From positions 1,919-65,918 of the forward strand of contig JAFZIN010000017.1 in NCBI GenBank assembly GCA_017554305.1: a stretch of 64,000 nt of DNA. The letters run 5' to 3'. Under the pieces are notes generated by a model. The model was given only the letters and a program-made list of their open reading frames with translations. It did not search any database and was not told the DNA's origin. Every line of letters starts with the position of its first letter. Position 1 is the first letter of the stretch. The DNA comes from Bacteroidales bacterium. GTDB taxonomy: Bacteria; Bacteroidota; Bacteroidia; Bacteroidales; UBA932. The position numbers were made by a program, and so were the translations under genes. Of this stretch, positions 41,595-50,636 are shown one piece after another.

Positions 41595-42629
41595 TTATGG
41601 CACAATTTTGGGGCCTTTGTTCAGCTTTACACTATTGTTTGCTGCTGCAGTCTGACGGATTACGTTGCCAATCATCAATGCATTATAGGAATCGATCTTA
41701 CGGTGAGCAAGAACTTCCTGCTGGGCATTGTGGGGATTGATCTTACGGCCAGCAAGAACCTCCTTCTGAGCATTGTGGGGATTGATCTTACGGCCAGCAA
41801 GAATTTCCTTCTGAGCAAGGAGAACCGAACTGATTTCACTTTCGAGAACCTTTGGCCGAATTTTGCCTCCAATCGTGTTGGGAAGCTTCATGCTCTGGGC
41901 CAACTCGCAGCTTTGCAGCACAACTATACGCTCAGCAATATCGAAATTAGCTACGGCAGCAAGAGCCTTTTCGCCACTAAGCAGGTTACCCTTCTTTGCC
42001 AAAGCCTCAGCACTTGCCTTGTCACCCTCAAGGGCAGCAGTCATCTGCTGGTAATCCAACCACTGGTCGCGGACCAGTTTCAATTTGTCATCACCCTGGG
42101 CTGTCTCCAGATACTTGTCGGTGGTCTCAATGAAACGGTTGGCCAAATTGTTCTGCTTCTGCAGCGTGGTGTAAGCCAGTGAGGCGTTGATGGTAGACTG
42201 GGCCAAGTCGGGACACTCCTCACCTCCAAGGGCGGCATTCAGTTTTTCGGCTGACTCTGCCAGCGAGCTGGCAACGTTGTCCACCATCTCACGGCTGGCG
42301 TTCATCTCCTTAAGCACCTCGGCAAATGCGGGGATGTTGCCGGCTACCTCATTTGACATGTCAACCAACGTGCCAAACTGGGCGGCGCGTGTCTGCATCA
42401 CCACCTGGGCTACCACGATATCATCCCTGAAGGCTGAGTCGGTCTGAAGGAGTTCTTCCATATTAGTAAGCTTCTCGGAAACTTTCTCACGAGAGAATTT
42501 AGCAGCCTTGGCGATATCGCCATCTGCCTCATTGAGACCCACTGGCCAATCAACAAAATAAGAGGTGATTAACCCTATGGCGAATATAGCTGCAACCGAA
42601 CACAAGATAAGAATACTTTTCTTTTTCAT
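41595..42629 (-). CDS. N-terminally anchored helical protein with C-terminal 15-aa tandem repeats
   Basis: TM anchor KKKSILILCSVAAIFAIGLI, an A/E/L-rich helical body and 3 x Q(K/Q)E(I/V)LA(G/H)RKI(N/D)(P/S)(H/Y)NA. Its stop lies 8 nt before the next gene's start. Confidence 0.6.
   Translation of the reverse strand: MKKKSILILCSVAAIFAIGLITSYFVDWPVGLNEADGDIAKAAKFSREKVSEKLTNMEELLQTDSAFRDDIVVAQVVMQTRAAQFGTLVDMSNEVAGNIPAFAEVLKEMNASREMVDNVASSLAESAEKLNAALGGEECPDLAQSTINASLAYTTLQKQNNLANRFIETTDKYLETAQGDDKLKLVRDQWLDYQQMTAALEGDKASAEALAKKGNLLSGEKALAAVANFDIAERIVVLQSCELAQSMKLPNTIGGKIRPKVLESEISSVLLAQKEILAGRKINPHNAQKEVLAGRKINPHNAQQEVLAHRKIDSYNALMIGNVIRQTAAANNSVKLNKGPKIVP
41679..41813. repeat. 3 x 45-bp in-frame tandem repeat
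   Basis: Units at 41769..41813, 41724..41768 and 41679..41723 (minus-strand order) encode QKEILAGRKINPHNA / QKEVLAGRKINPHNA / QQEVLAHRKIDSYNA. Confidence 0.9.
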
Positions 42630-42705: not shown

Positions 42706-42854
42706 CAACATATTTTGTTTCCATCCAAACTTTTTTGTATTTTTTGTATATTTGAACTTAAATAACTGAAAAAGCAACATGGAAAATCTTAGCGATTTGT
42801 CCATGCTGCCTATTTTCAATCCGTTACGCTAAATCAATGCGTAATTGAATGATC

Positions 42855-42873
42855 AATACTCATCCTCGTTGAA
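42855..42873. repeat. attL-like direct repeat AATACTCATCCTCGTTGAA
   Basis: Matches 50417..50435 at 18/19 positions. On the minus strand it reads ...LFNEDEY-stop, a displaced remnant of the DUF2795 3' end. Confidence 0.85.
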
Positions 42874-42932
42874 GAGATTTTTGGTACTTATAAACTATTT
42901 ATAATCAGTGTAATAATTTTTTAACATAGCAT

Positions 42933-42943
42933 AATAGACAAGG
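42933..42943. repeat. Arm-type site candidate AATAGACAAGG (left end copy)
   Basis: The same 11-mer, in the same orientation, recurs at 50243..50253 and 50297..50307 next to the other element end. Confidence 0.6.
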
Positions 42944-42949
42944 ATATTT

Positions 42950-42995
42950 GTGTAAAAATTAAGGGAATTTGAGAATATCTATCTCTAATTCCCTT
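42950..42995 (-). terminator. Terminator-like hairpin after the Xis-like gene
   Basis: 9-bp arms aagggaatt / aattccctt (42961..42969 and 42987..42995). On the minus strand the hairpin is followed by aattttt. Confidence 0.5.
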
Positions 42996-43009
42996 TCTTT
43001 TTCAAGCAC

Positions 43010-43240
43010 TTACGCAACGTTCTCAACTTTCGGATAAAAGTTTGTTTTGTCATTCAAAAAGTCCAACAGGTGTTGGTGTTGAATGTAGATTTTGCTGCTG
43101 CCTGGAACTTGCGAATAACTAATCAATCCATTTCTAATCCACCTTCTAAATGTATTGTCTCCAATATCGAGTAGTTTTTTAACGTCATTCGCAGTATAAA
43201 CAGGTTTCCATAAATTGCTCTCGCTTCCATCTGCAACCAT
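43010..43240 (-). CDS. Excisionase/MerR-type HTH DNA-binding protein
   Basis: 76 aa. YTANDVKKLLDIGDNTFRRWIRNGLISYSQVPGSSKIYIQHQHLLDFL is the Xis-type HTH_17 pattern. It is the first gene inside attL. Confidence 0.7.
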   Translation of the reverse strand: MVADGSESNLWKPVYTANDVKKLLDIGDNTFRRWIRNGLISYSQVPGSSKIYIQHQHLLDFLNDKTNFYPKVENVA

Positions 43241-43676
43241 ACTAAATGATTTATTCTCTTATTCGCTTTTCAGCCCCTTGTTGTTCCTAACAAAGTTTGG
43301 AGTAGCCAGGGAAAACTTCGAACCCCATTTTTGTAAATATACAAAAAAAATCTGAGAAAGCCAAAGTCATCAGCACCAGTGCGATTGAGCAACCTATGAA
43401 ACTTGTCCGCCCTCTCTATTTTGTGATAATTCTGAAATCGTACGAAAAATTGTAGAATTAGCAGGCACTTTTGGATAATCTTGAAATTTGTCCGCCCTGC
43501 TTGCAAAAGGCAGTTGGTGTGCTACTTACATAAGTCTAAAGTGGAAAGTGAAACCTCAGCAACGGGCTAAAAATCTATCGTACTGAATTAGTGTGATTTG
43601 TATATTTCACTTCTGCGAGAGGTGATACACCAAAAAAAAACACTACCTTTGAGTGCAAGTATTCAAATTTACATCA

Positions 43677-44969
43677 ATGGAAAGTATCCGTTTTATTGAC
43701 TTGTTCGCAGGAATGGGGGGAATTCGGCTTGGATTACAACAAGCCTGCATAGATTTGGGCATTCATTCTCATTGTGTCTTTACAAGTGAGATTAAGTCAG
43801 CGGCGATAAGTGTTTATAAGCAAAATTTCCCATCGGACGTTATTTCAGGAGATATAACAAAGATTTCATCAGACGATATTCCTGATTTTGATATTCTCCT
43901 TGCGGGTTTCCCGTGCCAAGCGTTTTCTTATGCGGGCAATAGGGATGGTTTTGCTGATGCTACAAGGGGAACTTTATTCTTTGACGTTTTGAGAATTTTA
44001 CGAGAAAAGAAACCTATGGGTTTTATTCTTGAAAATGTTGAGGGCTTGGTTTCACACGACGGAGGACGTACATTCAAAACAATCATTTCAAGTTTAGAGG
44101 AACAATACAAAGTTTCTTATAGCATCCTTAATGCAAAGAGTTTCGGTGTTCCGCAAGATAGGAAGCGAATATACATTGTCGGAGTTAAAAAGAATAAGAG
44201 AAAAGTCAGCCTTGAAAATTTTTCCGCCTCCGGCGCAAAAATCGGAGACATCCTTGAAAAAGGACTTCCTATCAGCAAAACTCCTTTTATGAAAAAACTA
44301 CTATCTCATTATTCCGTTGAGGAATTAGAGGGGAAGAAAATTAAAGATAAGAGAGGCGGTTCGGACAATATCCATAGTTGGGATATGGAGTTAAAAGGGC
44401 GTGTTTCAAAAGAACAAAAGGAATTGTTAAACGAAATGTTGAAAGCCCGCAGACAACATAAGTGGGCAGAGGAATGGGGAATTGATTGGATGGACGGAAT
44501 GCCATTAACCGAGACTCAAATTAGTACATTTTACTCCCATCCGCGACTTGGGAGTATGTTGGAGGACTTGACAAAGAAAGGTTATTTGGTTTATGAATAC
44601 CCTAAAAAGAAAGTGGTTTCATCATCAGTCGTTTCTGGAAGAGAAGTTAAAATAAGCAGACGTGTTCCCGACGAGACAAAACCGAAAGGTTATAATATCG
44701 TTGCAGGAAAATTGTCTTTTGAGGTATCTGAAATTCTTTCACGTAAATCTATTGCTCCTACATTGGTGGCAATGGATATGCACAGAATACACGTAGTGGA
44801 TGGCACTGGCGTAAGAAAGTTGTCTTTGAGAGAAGGATTAAGGCTGTTTGGTTATCCCGACAATTATAAGTTCAGCATTACAGAGAAGGAAGGTTATGAC
44901 TTGTTAGGTAATACGGTAGTTGTCCCTGTAATTAAAGCGGTTGCTAAAAGATTAATATCATCCTTGTAA
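43677..44969 (+). CDS. DNA (cytosine-5)-methyltransferase
   Basis: Start set at ATG 43677 (MESIRFIDLFAGMGG). Motifs I FAGMGG, IV GFPCQAFS, VI ENVEGL, VIII QDRKRIYIVG, IX REGLRLFGYPDNY, X GNTVVVPV. Long variable region between VIII and IX. Confidence 0.93.
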   Translation: MESIRFIDLFAGMGGIRLGLQQACIDLGIHSHCVFTSEIKSAAISVYKQNFPSDVISGDITKISSDDIPDFDILLAGFPCQAFSYAGNRDGFADATRGTLFFDVLRILREKKPMGFILENVEGLVSHDGGRTFKTIISSLEEQYKVSYSILNAKSFGVPQDRKRIYIVGVKKNKRKVSLENFSASGAKIGDILEKGLPISKTPFMKKLLSHYSVEELEGKKIKDKRGGSDNIHSWDMELKGRVSKEQKELLNEMLKARRQHKWAEEWGIDWMDGMPLTETQISTFYSHPRLGSMLEDLTKKGYLVYEYPKKKVVSSSVVSGREVKISRRVPDETKPKGYNIVAGKLSFEVSEILSRKSIAPTLVAMDMHRIHVVDGTGVRKLSLREGLRLFGYPDNYKFSITEKEGYDLLGNTVVVPVIKAVAKRLISSL

Positions 44970-44970
44970 T

Positions 44971-45687
44971 ATGAAGATTAGCATAGACAGAATGTTTCAA
45001 GTCTTGAAAGACGAACTTGAAAATGACAATACAGGTAAAATCACATTCTCGCTAGCAGAAGTTGAAATTGTTGTGAAGCAGAATAATGTTGTTGGAAATA
45101 TCATTGAAGAATGGTTGGATAGTTGGATTACAAAGCACGATTACGAACACATCTATAATCACGGGCAATGCTCTCCTGACTTTTGGTTTGACATAAACAA
45201 TTTGAATAAAGATTGGCTTGAAGTCAAGTCTTTTACAGGCTCTGCTAATTTTGACATAGCGAACTTTATGTCGTTCATCAATGAAATCGTAGATAAGCCT
45301 TGGAAACTTGACGCGAAATATCTTTGCATTGAATATTCAATGGAAGAGGCATCTGGTATTGTCTCCATTGATAATGTATGGCTTAAAAATGTTTGGGAGA
45401 TTTCTTGTCCAAGCAGAAAATGGGCGTTGAAGGTTCAAGATAAAAAGGGTGTAATCTATAACCTTCGTCCTGCATCGTGGTATTCAGATAGAAGTGATTA
45501 TTGTCCTTTCAGAACACTTGAACATTTTTTATCTGCCCTTGACTATGTTGTAAAGACATATCCACCGACATCACACATAGGGCTGACATTTAGGAATAGA
45601 TTGGAAGCGGCTCTCTCTGCTCACAAGGGCACTCAATTTCATATTCCGCTCTGGCAAGATATAGCGGAACAATATGACTGGGAATAA
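44971..45687 (+). CDS. Type II restriction endonuclease (PD-(D/E)xK)
   Basis: Starts 1 nt after the methyltransferase stop. CSPDFWFDINNLNKDWLEVKSF gives PD...E-V-K. Size 238 aa. The family and specificity are not recognisable by eye. Confidence 0.7.
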   Translation: MKISIDRMFQVLKDELENDNTGKITFSLAEVEIVVKQNNVVGNIIEEWLDSWITKHDYEHIYNHGQCSPDFWFDINNLNKDWLEVKSFTGSANFDIANFMSFINEIVDKPWKLDAKYLCIEYSMEEASGIVSIDNVWLKNVWEISCPSRKWALKVQDKKGVIYNLRPASWYSDRSDYCPFRTLEHFLSALDYVVKTYPPTSHIGLTFRNRLEAALSAHKGTQFHIPLWQDIAEQYDWE

Positions 45688-45690
45688 GGT

Positions 45691-45921
45691 TTATATTGCA
45701 ATTAAATCTCCTTTCAAAACCACCCTTGTTGAGCCGAGAGCCCAACGCCAATTTAAGTCTTTGACAAGACACCTGTCGCTGTCCTCTCCATAGTCATCAA
45801 TGACAAGCATTCGGACACTTTCATCGCCTGGGTCAATTACTTCCCGAAACTTAACATACATCCCTGTAAGGATTGGTTCATCTTGTATATCGCTCATATC
45901 CTTAAAATTGTAAATCATCAT
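45691..45921 (-). CDS. Hypothetical protein (76 aa)
   Basis: Overlaps the stop of the upstream short recombinase gene by 20 nt. No motif recognised. Confidence 0.4.
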   Translation of the reverse strand: MMIYNFKDMSDIQDEPILTGMYVKFREVIDPGDESVRMLVIDDYGEDSDRCLVKDLNWRWALGSTRVVLKGDLIAI

Positions 45922-46501
45922 ATACTTCCCCGAGTTCCTGCTGGCGTAAGCCGATATATCTGCGGGTAATTGACGGGGAGGTATGGTTCATTATCTCACT
46001 CAATTTCAATAGGGCTAATTCTCCTCGTCCTACATTGTTTTCCCGCTCCCATATCTGCCTTGCCCAAGTCTTTCGGAGTGTGTGGGTGCTAAAATTAGCG
46101 ATTTTAAGACAATACTGCACTCTCATCCACTTGAAATGCCTATTTATCATTTGAATAGTGGTTGTAGAGCCGAAACGATTAAGGAAACAAGGTTCATCCA
46201 TATCATCCGCCCCGATACCAAGAGCCTCAGCACAATCCTTAATGTGTCCCTGATAGCCTCTATTTATTCGTACAACCCTCCTTTTTTGGGTTTTCTGTTC
46301 GGTAATGACAAATTCCTCGGCATTGAGAATTTGACGCCAAGATAGAGCCAATAAATCGGAAATTCGTAAGCCAAAGAAACACCCGCATCCTACAAGTAAG
46401 GAAAGACGATATTTGCCATCCTTGTAGAGTTTGCGGACAAGGCTCATTGCGGTTTCCCAAGGCAAGTAATCGGCAGTTGTATAACTATGTTTAGCACTCA
46501 T
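45902..46501 (-). CDS. Short tyrosine recombinase (catalytic domain only)
   Basis: 199 aa. GLRISDLLAL (Arg), THTLRKTWA (His-x-x-Arg), MNHTSPSITRRYIG (His...Tyr). No N-terminal arm- or core-binding domain. Confidence 0.7.
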   Translation of the reverse strand: MSAKHSYTTADYLPWETAMSLVRKLYKDGKYRLSLLVGCGCFFGLRISDLLALSWRQILNAEEFVITEQKTQKRRVVRINRGYQGHIKDCAEALGIGADDMDEPCFLNRFGSTTTIQMINRHFKWMRVQYCLKIANFSTHTLRKTWARQIWERENNVGRGELALLKLSEIMNHTSPSITRRYIGLRQQELGEVYDDLQF

Positions 46502-46613
46502 ATTTCAAATCTTTTAATAAGGAATAAAACTGATATGTTTATTTGTATTTGTCAATATATTTGCTTGATTTTAAGGCAATATGCTACTTCTCGTATAGGT
46601 GGGATATGGAACA

Positions 46614-46955
46614 TTAAGCCCCATATCCGATAAACGAGCCAATCCTCATTGATTTCCACTTTCCGCACTCACAATCTATGAAAGGAATTTGTCCGTAGCG
46701 GAGTTTTGGTTGTGTGCCAATCCGAGACGCTGTTTTTGCCTCAGCGAGAGAGGGTTTTGTTGTTCCCCAAAACTCACGAATAGAGCCATCAACCTTCTGA
46801 AAGTAGCCATGTACGATACCGCTTCTTAGACGAAAGACAAGTTCATTGCACTTTGACATTTGCAAAGCAGCAACAAATGTATCAATGCTTCTCATAGCGG
46901 AATACTTTGCTATTGTAAGTTCCTGATTACTAACTGTCATAATCTGTGTTTTCAT
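46614..46955 (-). CDS. DUF2693-like (SH3 beta-barrel) phage/plasmid-associated protein
   Basis: 113 aa. ...LVFRLRSGIVHGYFQKVDGSIREFWGTT...RYGQIPFIDCECGKWKSMRIGSFI resembles the DUF2693 pattern as I remember it. Confidence 0.45.
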   Translation of the reverse strand: MKTQIMTVSNQELTIAKYSAMRSIDTFVAALQMSKCNELVFRLRSGIVHGYFQKVDGSIREFWGTTKPSLAEAKTASRIGTQPKLRYGQIPFIDCECGKWKSMRIGSFIGYGA

Positions 46956-47110
46956 ATCCTGATACTTATTGGTTGTTTATATTATCTAATTTGTCTCTCT
47001 CTTTCAACGGTACAAAGATATGACAAATAAGCCTTATATGCAAACTTTTTATGACTTTTTAGTCTTTTTTGTCATATTATTTTAAATTTTCTCTAATTTT
47101 GTCTCTTGTT

Positions 47111-47353
47111 ATGAAGAAAACTAAGTTTGAAAAGAAGGTTATTCACCTTACTATCAAGGGCGAAACCCGTGAAGAGGACATTCATTCCTACTACGGGAGC
47201 GTTGCTTGTATCTACGACTATTATGACGCCGAGGATATTGGCATAACTTACGGCTCACTAAGAAATTACGGGCTATCTGAAAATAAATTTTATGAAAATT
47301 CAAAAGTTATAATTAGGCAAGGTAAGTTATTTACAAAAGATAGGAGTGTCTAA
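47111..47353 (+). CDS. Hypothetical protein (80 aa)
   Basis: Start set at MKKTKFEKKV. No motif recognised. Convergent with the Rep-like gene. Confidence 0.4.
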   Translation: MKKTKFEKKVIHLTIKGETREEDIHSYYGSVACIYDYYDAEDIGITYGSLRNYGLSENKFYENSKVIIRQGKLFTKDRSV

Positions 47354-47450
47354 AAGTAAAGTCAAGTTTTTTCTTGTAAAGTCCTTGAGATTGTTAGTAT
47401 TAACTCAAGAACTACTGTTATGGTGGGGGATATTGTTATTCTACCCCCTG

Positions 47451-48305
47451 TCACGACATTCTCAATAAGTCTATCCACTGAATTCTTTCTCGGTTTCGTT
47501 TAAAGCGGATAACTGACGAGAGGTGGTAAATAAAAATCTCCTTAAGAGTATCGTTATCAAAGAGCATGTCTGCTGTTGGAACGATATTCCTATTGCCGAA
47601 ATAATCCTTTAATTCTTGATATGGTAGGCGTACTTCCATACGATATAACCTCTTGGGTTTCTGATAGTAATCAAGGATATACTGCTTGTCTGAGGAGTTC
47701 TCTATTTCAGCCAATTTATCGTATGCTTGAACAACAATGCCAGCGTTCTTGTAACGTTGTGCTTTGCGTTGTTTTATCGTTATGGTAGGGTGCTTTAACC
47801 GCTCCAGGTTAGTAGAATACTCAAAATATATTTCGCTGAGAATTTTCTTTCTATCTTGAACTGCTTTGCCGTTTATTATTGTAGTAACCTCGGCATCACG
47901 CATCATCTTCTTTACCAAGGACGGAATGTTAAAACTGGCATCAAAGGCAATATCTATTGATGTTATGTTGTTGATGATAAATCCAAGAGTGTCAGGTAGT
48001 TTTAAGACGGTGTGGAGTAGTTTAGGGTTATAGAATACAGGGTTCATAACCTTAAAATACGTATGTATGATTTCATCGTCGTTATCCGTGTAATGCCCAA
48101 ATTTTAGTTGTGCTACTTGCTCGTTAAACATAAGTATATCAAAACAATAGCGAAACCTATCGTTGAGTATTCTATAAAAGGAAAAGTCGCCTATTTCAAT
48201 ATGTTCTCCTACTTCAACATTCTCAAATCGTTGTATATCAGCGTTGTTTGCAAGATAACAAATTCGTAGTTCATCTATTACAAATCTATGTTCACTGACT
48301 TTCAT
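47451..48305 (-). CDS. Rep_trans-like rolling-circle replication initiation protein
   Basis: 284 aa. Hallmarks in the right order: N-terminal IDELRICY, ITSIDIAFD, VVQAYDKLAEI, LYRMEVRL. Confidence 0.55.
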   Translation of the reverse strand: MKVSEHRFVIDELRICYLANNADIQRFENVEVGEHIEIGDFSFYRILNDRFRYCFDILMFNEQVAQLKFGHYTDNDDEIIHTYFKVMNPVFYNPKLLHTVLKLPDTLGFIINNITSIDIAFDASFNIPSLVKKMMRDAEVTTIINGKAVQDRKKILSEIYFEYSTNLERLKHPTITIKQRKAQRYKNAGIVVQAYDKLAEIENSSDKQYILDYYQKPKRLYRMEVRLPYQELKDYFGNRNIVPTADMLFDNDTLKEIFIYHLSSVIRFKRNRERIQWIDLLRMS

Positions 48306-48505
48306 GGTTTTTCATTGTTATTGGAATTATTGTTCTTCTCGTCATTACTATCTGGACGATGAGGTACTGTCTGCCAATAGTCCAACATCGCTTGGCGGAT
48401 GTGCTCTTTATGCCATTCGCTTTTCTTTTTGCCTTTACTTGTTTGGCTGATTTTCTGTTTTGTCTCATCGGGTATCTCCCGATATTGTCTCTTGTATTCT
48501 GTCAT
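48302..48505 (-). CDS. Small NUMOD3-like DNA-binding protein
   Basis: 67 aa. IPDETKQKISQTSKGKKKSEWHKEHIRQAM matches the NUMOD3 repeat pattern, with an N/S-rich tail. Its stop overlaps the Rep start (ATGA-type, 48302..48305). Confidence 0.5.
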   Translation of the reverse strand: MTEYKRQYREIPDETKQKISQTSKGKKKSEWHKEHIRQAMLDYWQTVPHRPDSNDEKNNNSNNNEKP

Positions 48506-48831
48506 AGTCTTATCTTTTTCTAATAAATAGTAGTAGGTTTAGAAAAAGTTGAAAGAGTAGTAGAATTTTTTTTTAGAGATTGGCAGATAGACTACGTTTA
48601 CCAAACTAATTGATGCCTACCTTTGATACTATTCGACACCATTTGAGAGGGGGATAACGTCTTAAAAAACAGATAAATTGGGGAGTGTGGGGTGGGGATA
48701 AGAAAAACGGCTTGCTGTGCTGTTCAGAAAGTGATTTCTTGTCTAAAACGAAAACGTCTTATAGAGAACAGAGCGTTTTAGGCGTTTTATTTTTGGGAAT
48801 TAACTCTCGAAATTAGACTTGGTAAAAATTG

Positions 48832-50196
48832 CTAGAAATCAGGCAAAAATGAGTAGTTGAGTTTGGATAGTTCTTTTTCAAGAGAGGTTTGTGTGTATTC
48901 CGAATAAACTTGCTCGGTAATATCGGTAGAACTATGCCCAAGCATACGGCTAACGACAGAAAGGCTCATGCCATCGTTGAGGGCACGACAGGCAAATGAA
49001 TGCCTGGCAAGGTGGAAATGGAGTTTGAAAGGTAGTCCCATCTTCTCCCCGACAACATCTAATGCTTGGTTAATCTTCTTGTTGCAAGAGTTGCGGGTTG
49101 AGTATAAGAGTTCCTGGTTGTTAATGTCAAAATCATCGCTGACTAGGTCAAAGACAAATTTCTTCCTGCGGTTCTTTGCCTTCCATCTTTCAAGAATTTT
49201 AATAGCGGCATCGCTGAGGGGTATGGTGTGGCGCGGCTTATGCCCCTTGGCGGTTTTGATTAGGATTTTCTTCAATTCTTTCTTCTCAAAATTGATATTG
49301 CTCCACATCAGGGTAAGGGTATCCACAAGCCTCAGCCCGCCAGCGTGAAATGCAAATAAGAACATTTCAATATACTCTTTTCTGCGTGGCTCGGTGTCGT
49401 TGTTGTAAAACTCTACTAACTTGTTTAACTGCTCTTTGGTTAAGTCCTTTCCGTCGTAAGTTTCACTATCAAGGTTCGGGGTTTCCTCCACCCTGCAATC
49501 CTTAATTTGAGCATACACGCTGCCTTCTATAAGTCCCTCATCTTTTGCCCTTTCGCAAGCGTTTATGATTGGTGTTAGGGCATGGTTGATTGTGGCATCG
49601 GAATTCTTTTCATCCCGTCGGTATTGGATATACTCATCTATGAGAGCCAATGAAATATCCCCGAGATACAATGCGGACTTATCGTTGTAAGTTCCTTTCT
49701 TCTTTGCTTTTAGGAACTTGGCAAATCCGTTCATACAACTAATCCCGTTCTCATAGCGGCTCTTACCGATTTTGCCTCGGGTGTATTTGGATTTGAGATT
49801 GTCAAGAACATATTGGATAAAATCCTTACCCCCATCCTTCCTTGTAAGTGGGGCATCGTTGAGGATACCCCTGATTACGCTCAATGTCATTTGGTGGGGG
49901 TGCTTCTGACTATATTCTTGGAGGCAGGTATCGTAATGGCTAAGTTTTCCGTGCAGGAGGTTATTCTGCCGTTGATAGTCTCTTCCATAGGAGGCACGGA
50001 GTTCTCCCTTTCCCGAGGAACCCTTCTCGTTCCAATCGTCTACCCTTACCCTTATCCCCGTATCTTTTCGGATAGGGGCGGCATCAAGCCAAGTGTATTC
50101 AAAGTAAAGCGTGTATGTCTTTGTCTTATCGTAGCCGTTTTTGGGATACTTTAACCTTAGTTTTCCATTGGGATATTCCCGCCTGTGCCTACCCAT
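48832..50196 (-). CDS. Tyrosine-type site-specific integrase (Bacteroidetes long form)
   Basis: 454 aa. N-terminal arm-binding-like region, SAM-like core-binding region and catalytic GGLRLVDTLTL, HLARHSFACRAL, LGHSSTDITEQVYSEY. Confidence 0.9.
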   Translation of the reverse strand: MGRHRREYPNGKLRLKYPKNGYDKTKTYTLYFEYTWLDAAPIRKDTGIRVRVDDWNEKGSSGKGELRASYGRDYQRQNNLLHGKLSHYDTCLQEYSQKHPHQMTLSVIRGILNDAPLTRKDGGKDFIQYVLDNLKSKYTRGKIGKSRYENGISCMNGFAKFLKAKKKGTYNDKSALYLGDISLALIDEYIQYRRDEKNSDATINHALTPIINACERAKDEGLIEGSVYAQIKDCRVEETPNLDSETYDGKDLTKEQLNKLVEFYNNDTEPRRKEYIEMFLFAFHAGGLRLVDTLTLMWSNINFEKKELKKILIKTAKGHKPRHTIPLSDAAIKILERWKAKNRRKKFVFDLVSDDFDINNQELLYSTRNSCNKKINQALDVVGEKMGLPFKLHFHLARHSFACRALNDGMSLSVVSRMLGHSSTDITEQVYSEYTQTSLEKELSKLNYSFLPDF

Positions 50197-50241
50197 TGTT
50201 TGTGTGTTTTAATATGTACGAGGATTTCCACAAAGGTACAA

Positions 50242-50307
50242 AAATAGACAAGGAAATCGCTCCTCAAAAAGCAAAATGTGCCACAGGGGTATCGGAAATA
50301 GACAAGG
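50242..50307. repeat. Two 12-bp direct repeats AAATAGACAAGG (50242..50253 and 50296..50307)
   Basis: Perfect copies 54 bp apart, between the integrase start and attR. An 11/12 copy lies near attL. Confidence 0.7.
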
Positions 50308-50324
50308 TTATATGCCACTTTTTT

Positions 50325-50372
50325 AAGCAAAAAAGAGTGGAACAAGGAAATTCTCCATTGTCCCACTCTTTT
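50325..50372 (-). terminator. Terminator supplied by the element for the DUF2795 gene
   Basis: 10-bp arms aaaagagtgg / ccactctttt (50331..50340 and 50363..50372). On the minus strand the hairpin is followed by ttgctt. It lies 43 nt downstream of the DUF2795 stop, inside the element. Confidence 0.55.
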
Positions 50373-50414
50373 AATTTTCAGTCTTTTACTTAAAGAAAAA
50401 GGTTCTCTTTTTGC

Positions 50415-50636
50415 CTAATACTCGTCCTCGTTGAAAAAGAAGTCTTCTTTGCTAGGGTAGTCTGGCCACAGCTCTTCTATGCTGTCATAAACCTCCTCTT
50501 CATCTTCAATATCGTTGAGGTTCTCAATAACCTCATCCGGAGCTCCGGAACGTACGGCGTAATCAAGTAATTCACTTTTGGTAGCAGGCCATGGTGCGTC
50601 CTCAAGTTTTGATGCTAATTCTAGGGTCCAATACAT
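50415..50636 (-). CDS. DUF2795-family small acidic protein
   Basis: 73 aa. MYWTLELASKLEDAPWPATKSELLDYAVRSGAP...EDFFFNEDEY is the conserved Bacteroidetes DUF2795 pattern. Confidence 0.8.
   Translation of the reverse strand: MYWTLELASKLEDAPWPATKSELLDYAVRSGAPDEVIENLNDIEDEEEVYDSIEELWPDYPSKEDFFFNEDEY
50417..50435. repeat. attR-like direct repeat AATACTCGTCCTCGTTGAA
   Basis: Partner of 42855..42873. Forms the last codons (FNEDEY) and part of the stop of the intact DUF2795 gene. Confidence 0.85.

Follow-up and report, generated by a model that had tools for sequence, protein, structure and literature searches.

The 64-kb window analyzed here (64,000 nucleotides of contig JAFZIN010000017.1) belongs to a gut or rumen Bacteroidales bacterium and contains an inserted element of 7,581 bp, counting both of the 19-bp repeats that bound it. 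These repeats, AATACTC(A/G)TCCTCGTTGAA, lie at positions 42855-42873 and 50417-50435, are identical at 18 of 19 positions, and are the only two copies in the window. The right, gene-proximal copy supplies, on the minus strand, the residues FNEDEY and the TAG stop that close an intact 73-amino-acid (aa) gene of the DUF2795 family (50415-50636, minus strand; PF11387, E = 5.6e-18), the 3' end of which is the attachment site. The left, gene-distal copy reads LFNEDEY and TGA on the same strand and has no gene body joined to it. The G+C content is 38.8% within the element vs 45.3% in the rest of the window, in line with a preliminary description of this DNA that had put it at about 37% from a hand count of one line. 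That description had recognized the two repeats, the intact and the bodiless gene ends, and an integrative element between them, and the coordinates it gave for the repeats and for the features near the two ends were reproduced in our analysis.

Read in the orientation of DUF2795, the element runs from the proximal core through a hairpin and two arm-type motifs to a tyrosine integrase gene, genes for 67-aa and 284-aa proteins, an 80-aa gene on the opposite strand, and a WYL_2 gene. These are followed by a 199-aa recombinase gene, a 76-aa open reading frame (ORF), and an endonuclease and a methylase gene on the opposite strand. The far end consists of a 130-nt non-coding block, two GGGCGGACAA repeats, an HTH_17 gene, a third arm-type motif, and the distal core. 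All of the reading frames are whole and the catalytic residues of the integrase are kept, as expected from the earlier proposal that the element is intact. The gene of the integrase (454 aa; 48832-50196, minus strand) begins at a distance of 221 nt from the right core. The protein combines a Phage_int_SAM_5 domain with a catalytic domain (PF00589, E = 1.1e-23) and belongs to the IntDOT/NBU type of Bacteroidales integrases. Residues R289, R398, H421, and Y431 do not vary among 18 homologues, and H395 is almost as constant. The PF17293 arm-binding domain is found in some homologues.

The motif AATAGACAAGG occurs as exact matches on the plus strand at 50243-50253 and 50297-50307 near the proximal end and at 42933-42943 near the distal end, always in the same orientation, as the preliminary description had noted. 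Two sister elements at the same site, L005 (integrase 75% identical) and L011 (94% identical), retain the position, orientation, and copy number of this motif, such that in three elements with integrases 75-94% identical it is found at +128 and +182 from the core and approximately 89 bp before the distal end. The motif is a candidate integrase-binding arm-type site, and CCTTGTCTATT is a candidate sequence for binding by the N-terminal domain of the integrase. The gene that ends 137 nt from the left core encodes a 76-aa HTH_17 protein (43010-43240, minus strand; PF12728, E = 3.8e-8) that is weakly matched by two excisionase models, phrog_66 and TIGR01764, and is a candidate excisionase (recombination directionality factor). 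An inverted repeat directly 3' of this gene (42954-43002, minus strand) is likely its terminator. Upstream of its promoter region are two direct repeats, AGGGCGGACAA(A/G)TTTCA, 85 bp apart (43397-43498, minus strand), which are candidate operators; their GGGCGGACAA core is also present in L005 and L011.

To place the insertion in context, the exact DUF2795 protein was looked up in public assemblies, which gave ten contexts (labeled L001 and so forth). Three of these (L001, L004, and L006) are 100% identical to the window over the element and its flanks. Two others, L002 and L009, from related metagenome strains, are empty sites in which a single copy of the core lies between the predicted flanks. 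The alignment of these sites follows the right flank of the window to 50417 and the left flank from 42873, with an overlap of exactly the 19-bp core; the preliminary description had predicted that flanks lacking the element would be joined in this manner. The DUF2795 gene is kept in strains without the element and is found at the empty sites in the same host synteny. An origin of the repeat other than integration, by chance, by duplication of a gene end, or because DUF2795 itself was carried in on an island, had to be considered a priori, but can be given almost no credence. Matches to the repeat were found in none of 100 shuffled sequences, even with two mismatches permitted, and this reading does not account for empty sites that keep DUF2795 and one core, or for the recurrence of the same architecture in 78 of 79 other loci (see below).

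The single polymorphism between the two cores identifies which parts of the junctions came from the host. The empty sites have GAT at the variable position, followed by a TGA stop and then gatcatt. The distal core and the flank to its left have these same alleles, GAT and TGA, as in L002 and L009. The proximal core has the element-type allele GAC, followed by an element-derived TAG stop. The same segregation, with the element allele proximal and the host allele distal, is seen in L005 and L068. Provided that the mismatch was left unrepaired, this pattern implies that strand exchange took place 5' of the polymorphism, in TTCAACGAGGA, the stretch formed by the initial 11 bp of the core. The predicted attP is ...AAAATCTC-TTCAACGAGGA(C/T)GAGTATT-AGGCAAAAAG... 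and the predicted attB is ...GACTTCTTT-TTCAACGAGGATGAGTATT-GATCATTC....

The element rebuilds the end of its target gene: the encoded amino acids are unchanged, the stop codon is new, and a terminator hairpin belonging to the element follows. The hairpin, noted in the preliminary description, lies at 50331-50372 (minus strand; arms 50331-50345 and 50358-50372, 93% complementary) with a T-run on the DUF2795 strand, and is the predicted replacement terminator of DUF2795. Its stem shows compensatory changes in L005 and L011, and a hairpin is present at this position in most loci of the integrase clade. The original strong hairpin of the host still exists past the distal core, at approximately 42760-42812. 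A search of the element against Rfam returned one match, sub-threshold and at the terminator, and scans of the sequence for sigma-70 promoters and terminators gave counts at background level. About 36 nt past the core, on both the host side (42819-42825) and the element side (50375-50381), is a TGAAAA(T) sequence that is also found in L002, L003, L005, and L011; CTGATWAYCA-related motifs lie at about the same distance across the integrase clade. This type of motif may be a further protein-binding site.

Homologues of the integrase are numerous, with more than 1000 proteins at E <= 1e-30. A scan of one genome per species yielded 80 loci with integrases 48-94% identical, from Alistipes, Rikenellaceae, Muribaculaceae, Prevotella, Paraprevotella, Bacteroides, Porphyromonadaceae, and others. 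Among the 79 loci with enough upstream sequence to be evaluated, DUF2795 or its core was found approximately 180-280 bp upstream of the integrase in 78, in agreement with the expectation that homologous integrases would use the same 3' core. In 70 of the 79, a DUF2795 ORF ends approximately 180-280 bp before the integrase start; a further eight have the core without a complete upstream DUF2795 call (due to a contig end, a truncated gene, or a second tandem element), and one has neither. The C-terminal codons of DUF2795 are strongly conserved (DF[FL]F[ND]E[DE]EY). The target is the DUF2795 gene and, as first proposed, not a tRNA gene. A review of integrative and mobilizable elements (IMEs) gives tRNA genes or loose sites as the targets of Bacteroidetes elements (PMC5704250), and no mention of DUF2795 together with an integrase was found in the literature searched.

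Fully delimited relatives range from 1.97 kb (L023, integrase only) to 9.8 kb, and many elements of the clade run past the 10-kb flank. Relatives of the element also occupy the DUF2795 site in the cultured strains Bacteroides ilei Marseille-P3208 (L043), Muribaculaceae Isolate-013 (L027), and Paramuribaculum intestinale DSM 100749 (L089). Across the clade, DNA methylases and restriction enzymes (types I and II, DpnII, and EcoRV) are abundant in the cargo, which also has SIR2 as well as Mob_Pre relaxases, TraO, and conjugative transposon (CTn)-type proteins. Because of this cargo, the clade is seen to serve small defense carriers, mobilizable elements, and probably also conjugative elements. 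In L011, the host flanks have 70-74% identity to the window vs 91% for the integrase region, indicating horizontal spread between distant hosts.

Several loci have more complex arrangements at the DUF2795 site. Tandem arrays are present in L011 (17719-21005), where a second, decayed unit of 3.3 kb has a truncated integrase-like ORF and a 450-aa ORF, and in L068 (19598 onward), where a second complete integrase follows the distal core. Two copies of the core lie about 30 bp apart in L071. In L007, L008, and L010 (10202-11000), the same att site is occupied by a 761-bp insert with perfect 24-bp core repeats at both ends. Its sole ORF (149 aa) resembles by eye a TonB C-terminal-type lipoprotein, and there is no integrase; the insert may be what is left of an element that decayed, or else a cassette mobilized in trans. 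In L003 (8914-9020), DUF2795 is followed by approximately 107 bp of the proximal end of an element, including a near-identical terminator hairpin. The sequence then joins a DUF805 gene, and approximately 6.7 kb of host genes found in L002 are missing, such that the remnant looks like an element's deletion scar. A DUF2795-site relative with an integrase 55% identical to that of the window (L105-L107) carries WYL_2, a serine resolvase, and an HNH protein, along with a Dam-like methylase, a DUF6996/6997/7226 protein, and a further protein, longer than 1000 aa, with NADAR and ADP-ribosylglycohydrolase domains, a gene set that is possibly an uncharacterized defense system. Next to the distal end in the window, a 344-aa gene contains 45-bp (15-aa) tandem repeats that are KEVLAGRKINPHNAQ-like (41680-41817), and its length varies among strains (344, 346, and 364 aa).

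The cargo of the element is a type II restriction-modification (R-M) system, consisting of adjoining full-length genes for a C5 cytosine DNA methyltransferase (438 aa; 43653-44969, plus strand; PF00145, E = 1.4e-82) and an endonuclease of the NgoBV family (238 aa; 44971-45687, plus strand; PF09564, E = 8.3e-55). Going by the family name, the specificity is presumably GGNNCC (NgoBV/NlaIV-like). This sequence is observed once in the element vs approximately 10.7 expected, and is not depleted in the host sequence (125 observed vs 148 expected). Such depletion fits a mobile element that has long travelled with an R-M system of this kind. The sole GGNNCC site of the element is at 50017, within the integrase gene.

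Comparison with L005 and L011 reveals that these elements share a backbone with the window and differ from it in two sharply bounded modules, the Rep position (see below) and the R-M cargo. In place of the NgoBV-like system, L005 has an N6/N4 methylase system and L011 a different C5 methylase. Homology among the sisters is lost precisely where the gene for the 199-aa recombinase has its stop codon. It returns at a conserved non-coding block of 130 nt at the cargo slot's far edge (43508-43639, minus strand); this block is confined to the three closest sister elements. The 199-aa protein is a short tyrosine recombinase with a catalytic domain only (45902-46501, minus strand; PF00589, E = 1.4e-14) and its catalytic residues are present. 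It has more than 1500 homologues, with 67-92% identity among the matches listed, and all contexts examined have it directly upstream of an R-M slot that varies. It is always paired with the co-directional gene for the 113-aa WYL_2 protein (46614-46955, minus strand; PF10902, E = 1.4e-12; phrog_1086), and the order of a 74-80-aa gene, WYL_2, recombinase, and R-M genes is constant. In the window, the first of these is the 80-aa gene (47111-47353, plus strand; phrog_10608), divergent from WYL_2; the intergenic region between the two has a 24-nt imperfect palindrome (47011-47084) that is a candidate operator. The 76-aa ORF (45691-45921, minus strand), a protein of unknown function, overlaps the end of the short recombinase gene and is present in L011 and absent from L005.

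A candidate site for the short recombinase was identified in the 130-nt block. The sequence GTTTCAC-N(9-13)-GTGAAA has 10 occurrences in 1.68 Mb of fetched loci, all of them with an 11-nt spacer and all at the far edge of the slot; the window has a version with a single mismatch, GTATCAC-N11-GTGAAA, at 43605-43628. For a small recombinase with a single site, multimer resolution is most plausibly the best-fitting role. An integron-like platform for cassette capture was considered and finds no support, since a site is seen on one side of the slot only and none is seen at the recombinase stop codon where homology ends. A role in phase variation likewise finds no support, as no inversion variants were seen among the copies; a suspected invertible segment in L115 is a scaffold gap of Ns.

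The short recombinase is not restricted to the DUF2795 site. An identical copy (P0320) is found beside two different R-M systems in elements with a large serine integrase at other chromosomal sites. One may ask whether the element represents an undescribed, order-wide family of modular mini-elements, in which interchangeable integrases are combined with a divergent Rep_trans/MOBT-type module, of a kind characterized to date in Firmicutes, and a WYL_2/short-recombinase slot module, and in which the recombinase itself loads, swaps, or switches R-M and defense cassettes besides any resolution of multimers. Such a family would use a tyrosine integrase at DUF2795 and a large serine integrase elsewhere. 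We regard this broader proposal as quite unlikely.

The 284-aa protein (p284; 47451-48305, minus strand) occupies the position at which replication or mobilization functions might be expected. After a related integrase, Bacteroides ilei has an HTH_17 gene, primase-like genes, and a Mob_Pre relaxase gene; because the equivalent position holds these genes, p284 would then lie, by position, in a DNA-processing slot. Searches of p284 against NCBIfam and by sequence profile against PDB gave no usable match, and PHROGs gave one marginal match (E = 0.0067). An AlphaFold2 model built with 31 homologues (predicted local distance difference test, pLDDT, 87; predicted template modeling score, pTM, 0.86) was compared with PDB using Foldseek, which identified the rolling-circle Rep_trans proteins 4cij (E = 3e-7) and 4cwe (E = 5e-5), of the RepSTK1/RepD type, both with a probability of 1.0. 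The template modeling (TM) scores are approximately 0.46-0.48 at 13-16% sequence identity. A profile search of 1.8 billion representative proteins recovered 527 relatives. Among 53 diverse full-length relatives, 18 match PF02486 Rep_trans (best E = 6.2e-7) and seven match Phage_CRI. In the same 53, D11, Y92, Y195, K197, R222, and E224 of p284 are invariant, and D122 and E200 are at least 90% conserved. Rep_trans/MOBT enzymes have a motif III of the form Y-x-K-x-x-E and three acidic metal-binding residues (PMC6499999), and Y195-x-K197-x-x-E200 of p284 matches this motif; the allotment of its acidic residues to specific motifs is putative.

A p284 homologue (26% identity, E = 4e-11) is encoded on pRGF00029, a 4.1-kb circular plasmid from rat gut. 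The same plasmid has a gene for a Rep_3 initiator as well, a hint that mobilization may be the role of the p284-type protein instead of, or in addition to, replication. On the basis of its fold, the intermediate homologues, the active-site motif, and the plasmid homologue, p284 was assigned as a divergent Rep_trans-superfamily protein, and is a candidate rolling-circle initiator and/or MOBT-type relaxase. The preliminary description had recognized no mobilization or conjugation genes. This stands for conjugation, as the element has no pore gene, and has to be qualified for mobilization by the p284 candidate. With a candidate relaxase of the Rep_trans superfamily and no gene for a pore, the element is a candidate IME.

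Homologues of p284 are always preceded by a small ORF. In the window this encodes a 67-aa basic protein (48302-48505, minus strand) with a weak match to part of phrog_314, a candidate accessory DNA-binding protein; its gene overlaps the p284 gene start by 4 nt, and the two are apparently translationally coupled. Upstream of this operon is a conserved non-coding motif, ATCCCCACCC ... AGAYGTWATCCCC (48649-48701, minus strand), which is common to elements with p284 homologues and serine integrases and is a candidate nick site or origin. The Rep position of L005 and L011 is occupied by proteins (310 and 286 aa, respectively) that are 51% identical to each other and, by profile comparison, unrelated to p284, indicating that the Rep module is swapped as well. 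Homologues of p284 and its small upstream ORF are also found in L091-L100, which are 6-9-kb elements with a large serine integrase, a small resolvase, and cargo of either a toxin-antitoxin system (YafQ) or T5orf172. The occurrence of p284 homologues in these elements indicates that the replication/mobilization module is exchanged between elements with unrelated integrases.

Some of these genes also have relatives among phages. WYL_2 and the 80-aa protein match the phage families phrog_1086 and phrog_10608, the closest viral structural matches of p284 include Inoviridae proteins, one of them labeled Rep, and the layout of integrase, replication module, and defense slot is like that of P4-like satellites (PMC9122126). 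The element could on this basis be a phage satellite or phage-inducible island that is excised and replicated by means of p284 upon infection by a helper and spreads in capsids, not by conjugation. We consider this very unlikely. Pfam and PHROGs scans of the element revealed no capsid, packaging, phage-interference, or helper-hijacking gene, a search of 50,697 phage records with p284 gave no match, its profile found no relatives in IMG/VR viral contigs, and related integrases reside in elements with Mob_Pre relaxases or TraO.

Taken together, the data identify the element, with good though not complete confidence, as a site-specific integrative element that was placed by its tyrosine integrase in the last codons of DUF2795 and is most likely still excisable. 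Information on its present mobility comes from contig L111 (7,661 bp), recovered from two samples, which is made up of the element and of 44 and 36 bp of flanking host DNA. At each end, the contig stops precisely 55 nt away from the first position at which it departs from the empty allele. The breaks fit a branch in a k=55 assembly graph where occupied and empty alleles are co-present, as a result of either excision or a mixture of strains. Several observations weigh against a mobile element of this type. A detectable circle junction would make an attP branch at the start of L111, and there is none. The attP junction is absent from the Joint Genome Institute (JGI) metagenome contigs, as is the proximal end of the element, so that this collection lacks the element and is uninformative on excision. 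All four samples with the identical element (ERZ28653682, ERZ28019272, ERZ27256909, and ERZ28653989) share identical flanks, meaning that they represent one strain and not independent insertions. The window copy of the candidate recombinase site has one mismatch, in the left arm, to GTTTCAC-N11-GTGAAA, and the adjoining hairpin is degraded relative to L005 and L011. Neither p284 nor its 30 close homologues match any Pfam family, including PF02486. Finally, the element has no coupling protein or conjugation gene, and none was identified in the window.

The first four of these points are also what would be expected of a fixed relic that inserted once in a site-specific manner, is no longer mobile in this lineage, and is kept by an addictive R-M pair. 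The slight degradation of the recombinase site and hairpin and the decayed neighbors at this locus, namely, the 107-bp element end in L003 and the decayed second element in L011, are in keeping with such a fate. Against a relic, no ORF, core, or arm motif of the element is broken, both recombinases and p284 retain their catalytic residues, and the breaks in L111 suggest the coexistence of an occupied and an empty allele. A relic is an unlikely alternative. We favor an integrative element that is most likely excisable and probably mobilizable or able to replicate by the rolling-circle mechanism.

In the mechanism that we propose, the integrase, with the HTH_17 protein as excisionase, would excise a 7,562-bp circle. 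The 67-aa/284-aa module would nick a site in the conserved upstream region, leading to rolling-circle replication of the circle and/or transfer via a conjugation pore that a co-resident element provides. The 199-aa recombinase would act at GT(T/A)TCAC-N11-GTGAAA by the cargo, most plausibly resolving multimers, and the methylase/NgoBV-like pair would provide both defense against phage and stabilization of the element.

The mechanism itself, with a tyrosine integrase, arm sites, an excisionase, and insertion into and restoration of a gene 3' end, is textbook and is unchanged by these findings, the value of which is descriptive and practical. Newly recognized, in a descriptive sense, are the DUF2795 att site and its order-wide integrase clade, a divergent Bacteroidales protein of the Rep_trans type, and an R-M slot bounded by a recombinase. 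The 3' end of DUF2795 is a recurrent attachment site in Bacteroidales, in the role that tRNA genes have for NBU-type elements, and hosts small R-M carriers, mobilizable elements with Mob_Pre, and elements of larger size that have genes for conjugation, at times in tandem. It offers a simple anchor with which to find and delimit mobile and defense DNA in gut and rumen metagenomes, and an integrase with a compact conserved attB may help in the engineering of Bacteroidales. The divergent Rep_trans-type protein suggests that MOBT-like DNA processing extends beyond Firmicutes.

Among known systems, the element is similar to NBU1, NBU2, and other mobilizable elements of Bacteroides (PMC5704250) in its small size (roughly 10 kb), a Bacteroidales-type tyrosine integrase beside one end, insertion in the 3' end of a conserved gene via a short common core, and a small excisionase-like protein. 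The DUF2795-site relative in Bacteroides ilei has an NBU-like order of integrase, HTH_17, primase-like genes, and Mob. Unlike NBU1 and NBU2, the target is the protein-coding gene DUF2795 rather than a tRNA gene, a divergent Rep_trans-type protein is present instead of a MobP/MobV relaxase or primase domain, and there is an additional, short recombinase accompanied by WYL_2, as well as a slot with type II R-M cargo. The combination of a tyrosine integrase with a protein of the Y-x-K-x-x-E nicking-enzyme superfamily and its acidic metal-binding residues is like that of the MOBT/Rep_trans integrative and conjugative elements (ICEs) as well as IMEs of Firmicutes, such as ICESt3, Tn916, and ICEBs1 (PMC6499999, PMC7563843), where Rep_trans enzymes are both relaxase and rolling-circle initiator of the excised circle (PMC5704250). 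In contrast to these, the host here belongs to Bacteroidota, and p284, known from its sequence and predicted fold, is too divergent for a direct PF02486 match. The Rep proteins of the pT181 family (4cij and 4cwe) are the best structural matches of p284 and share its active-site motif, but the p284 gene lies on an element integrated in the chromosome, and the closest homologue on a plasmid, that of pRGF00029, is accompanied by a separate Rep_3.

The short recombinase and its slot have different counterparts. In single-recombinase resolution modules such as Cre/loxP and XerS/difSL, a tyrosine recombinase is encoded near a single inverted-repeat site on a circular replicon. The recombinase gene of the element is likewise near a single inverted-repeat site, a candidate one, which differs in having an 11-nt spacer and in being separated from the gene by cargo. 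The slot itself resembles the defense hotspots on P2 phages and P4 satellites, in which a conserved backbone has one sharply bounded slot where defense systems replace each other (PMC9122126); unlike those hotspots, the slot in this element is not part of a phage or recognizable satellite and has a recombinase gene and an inverted-repeat site as its boundaries.

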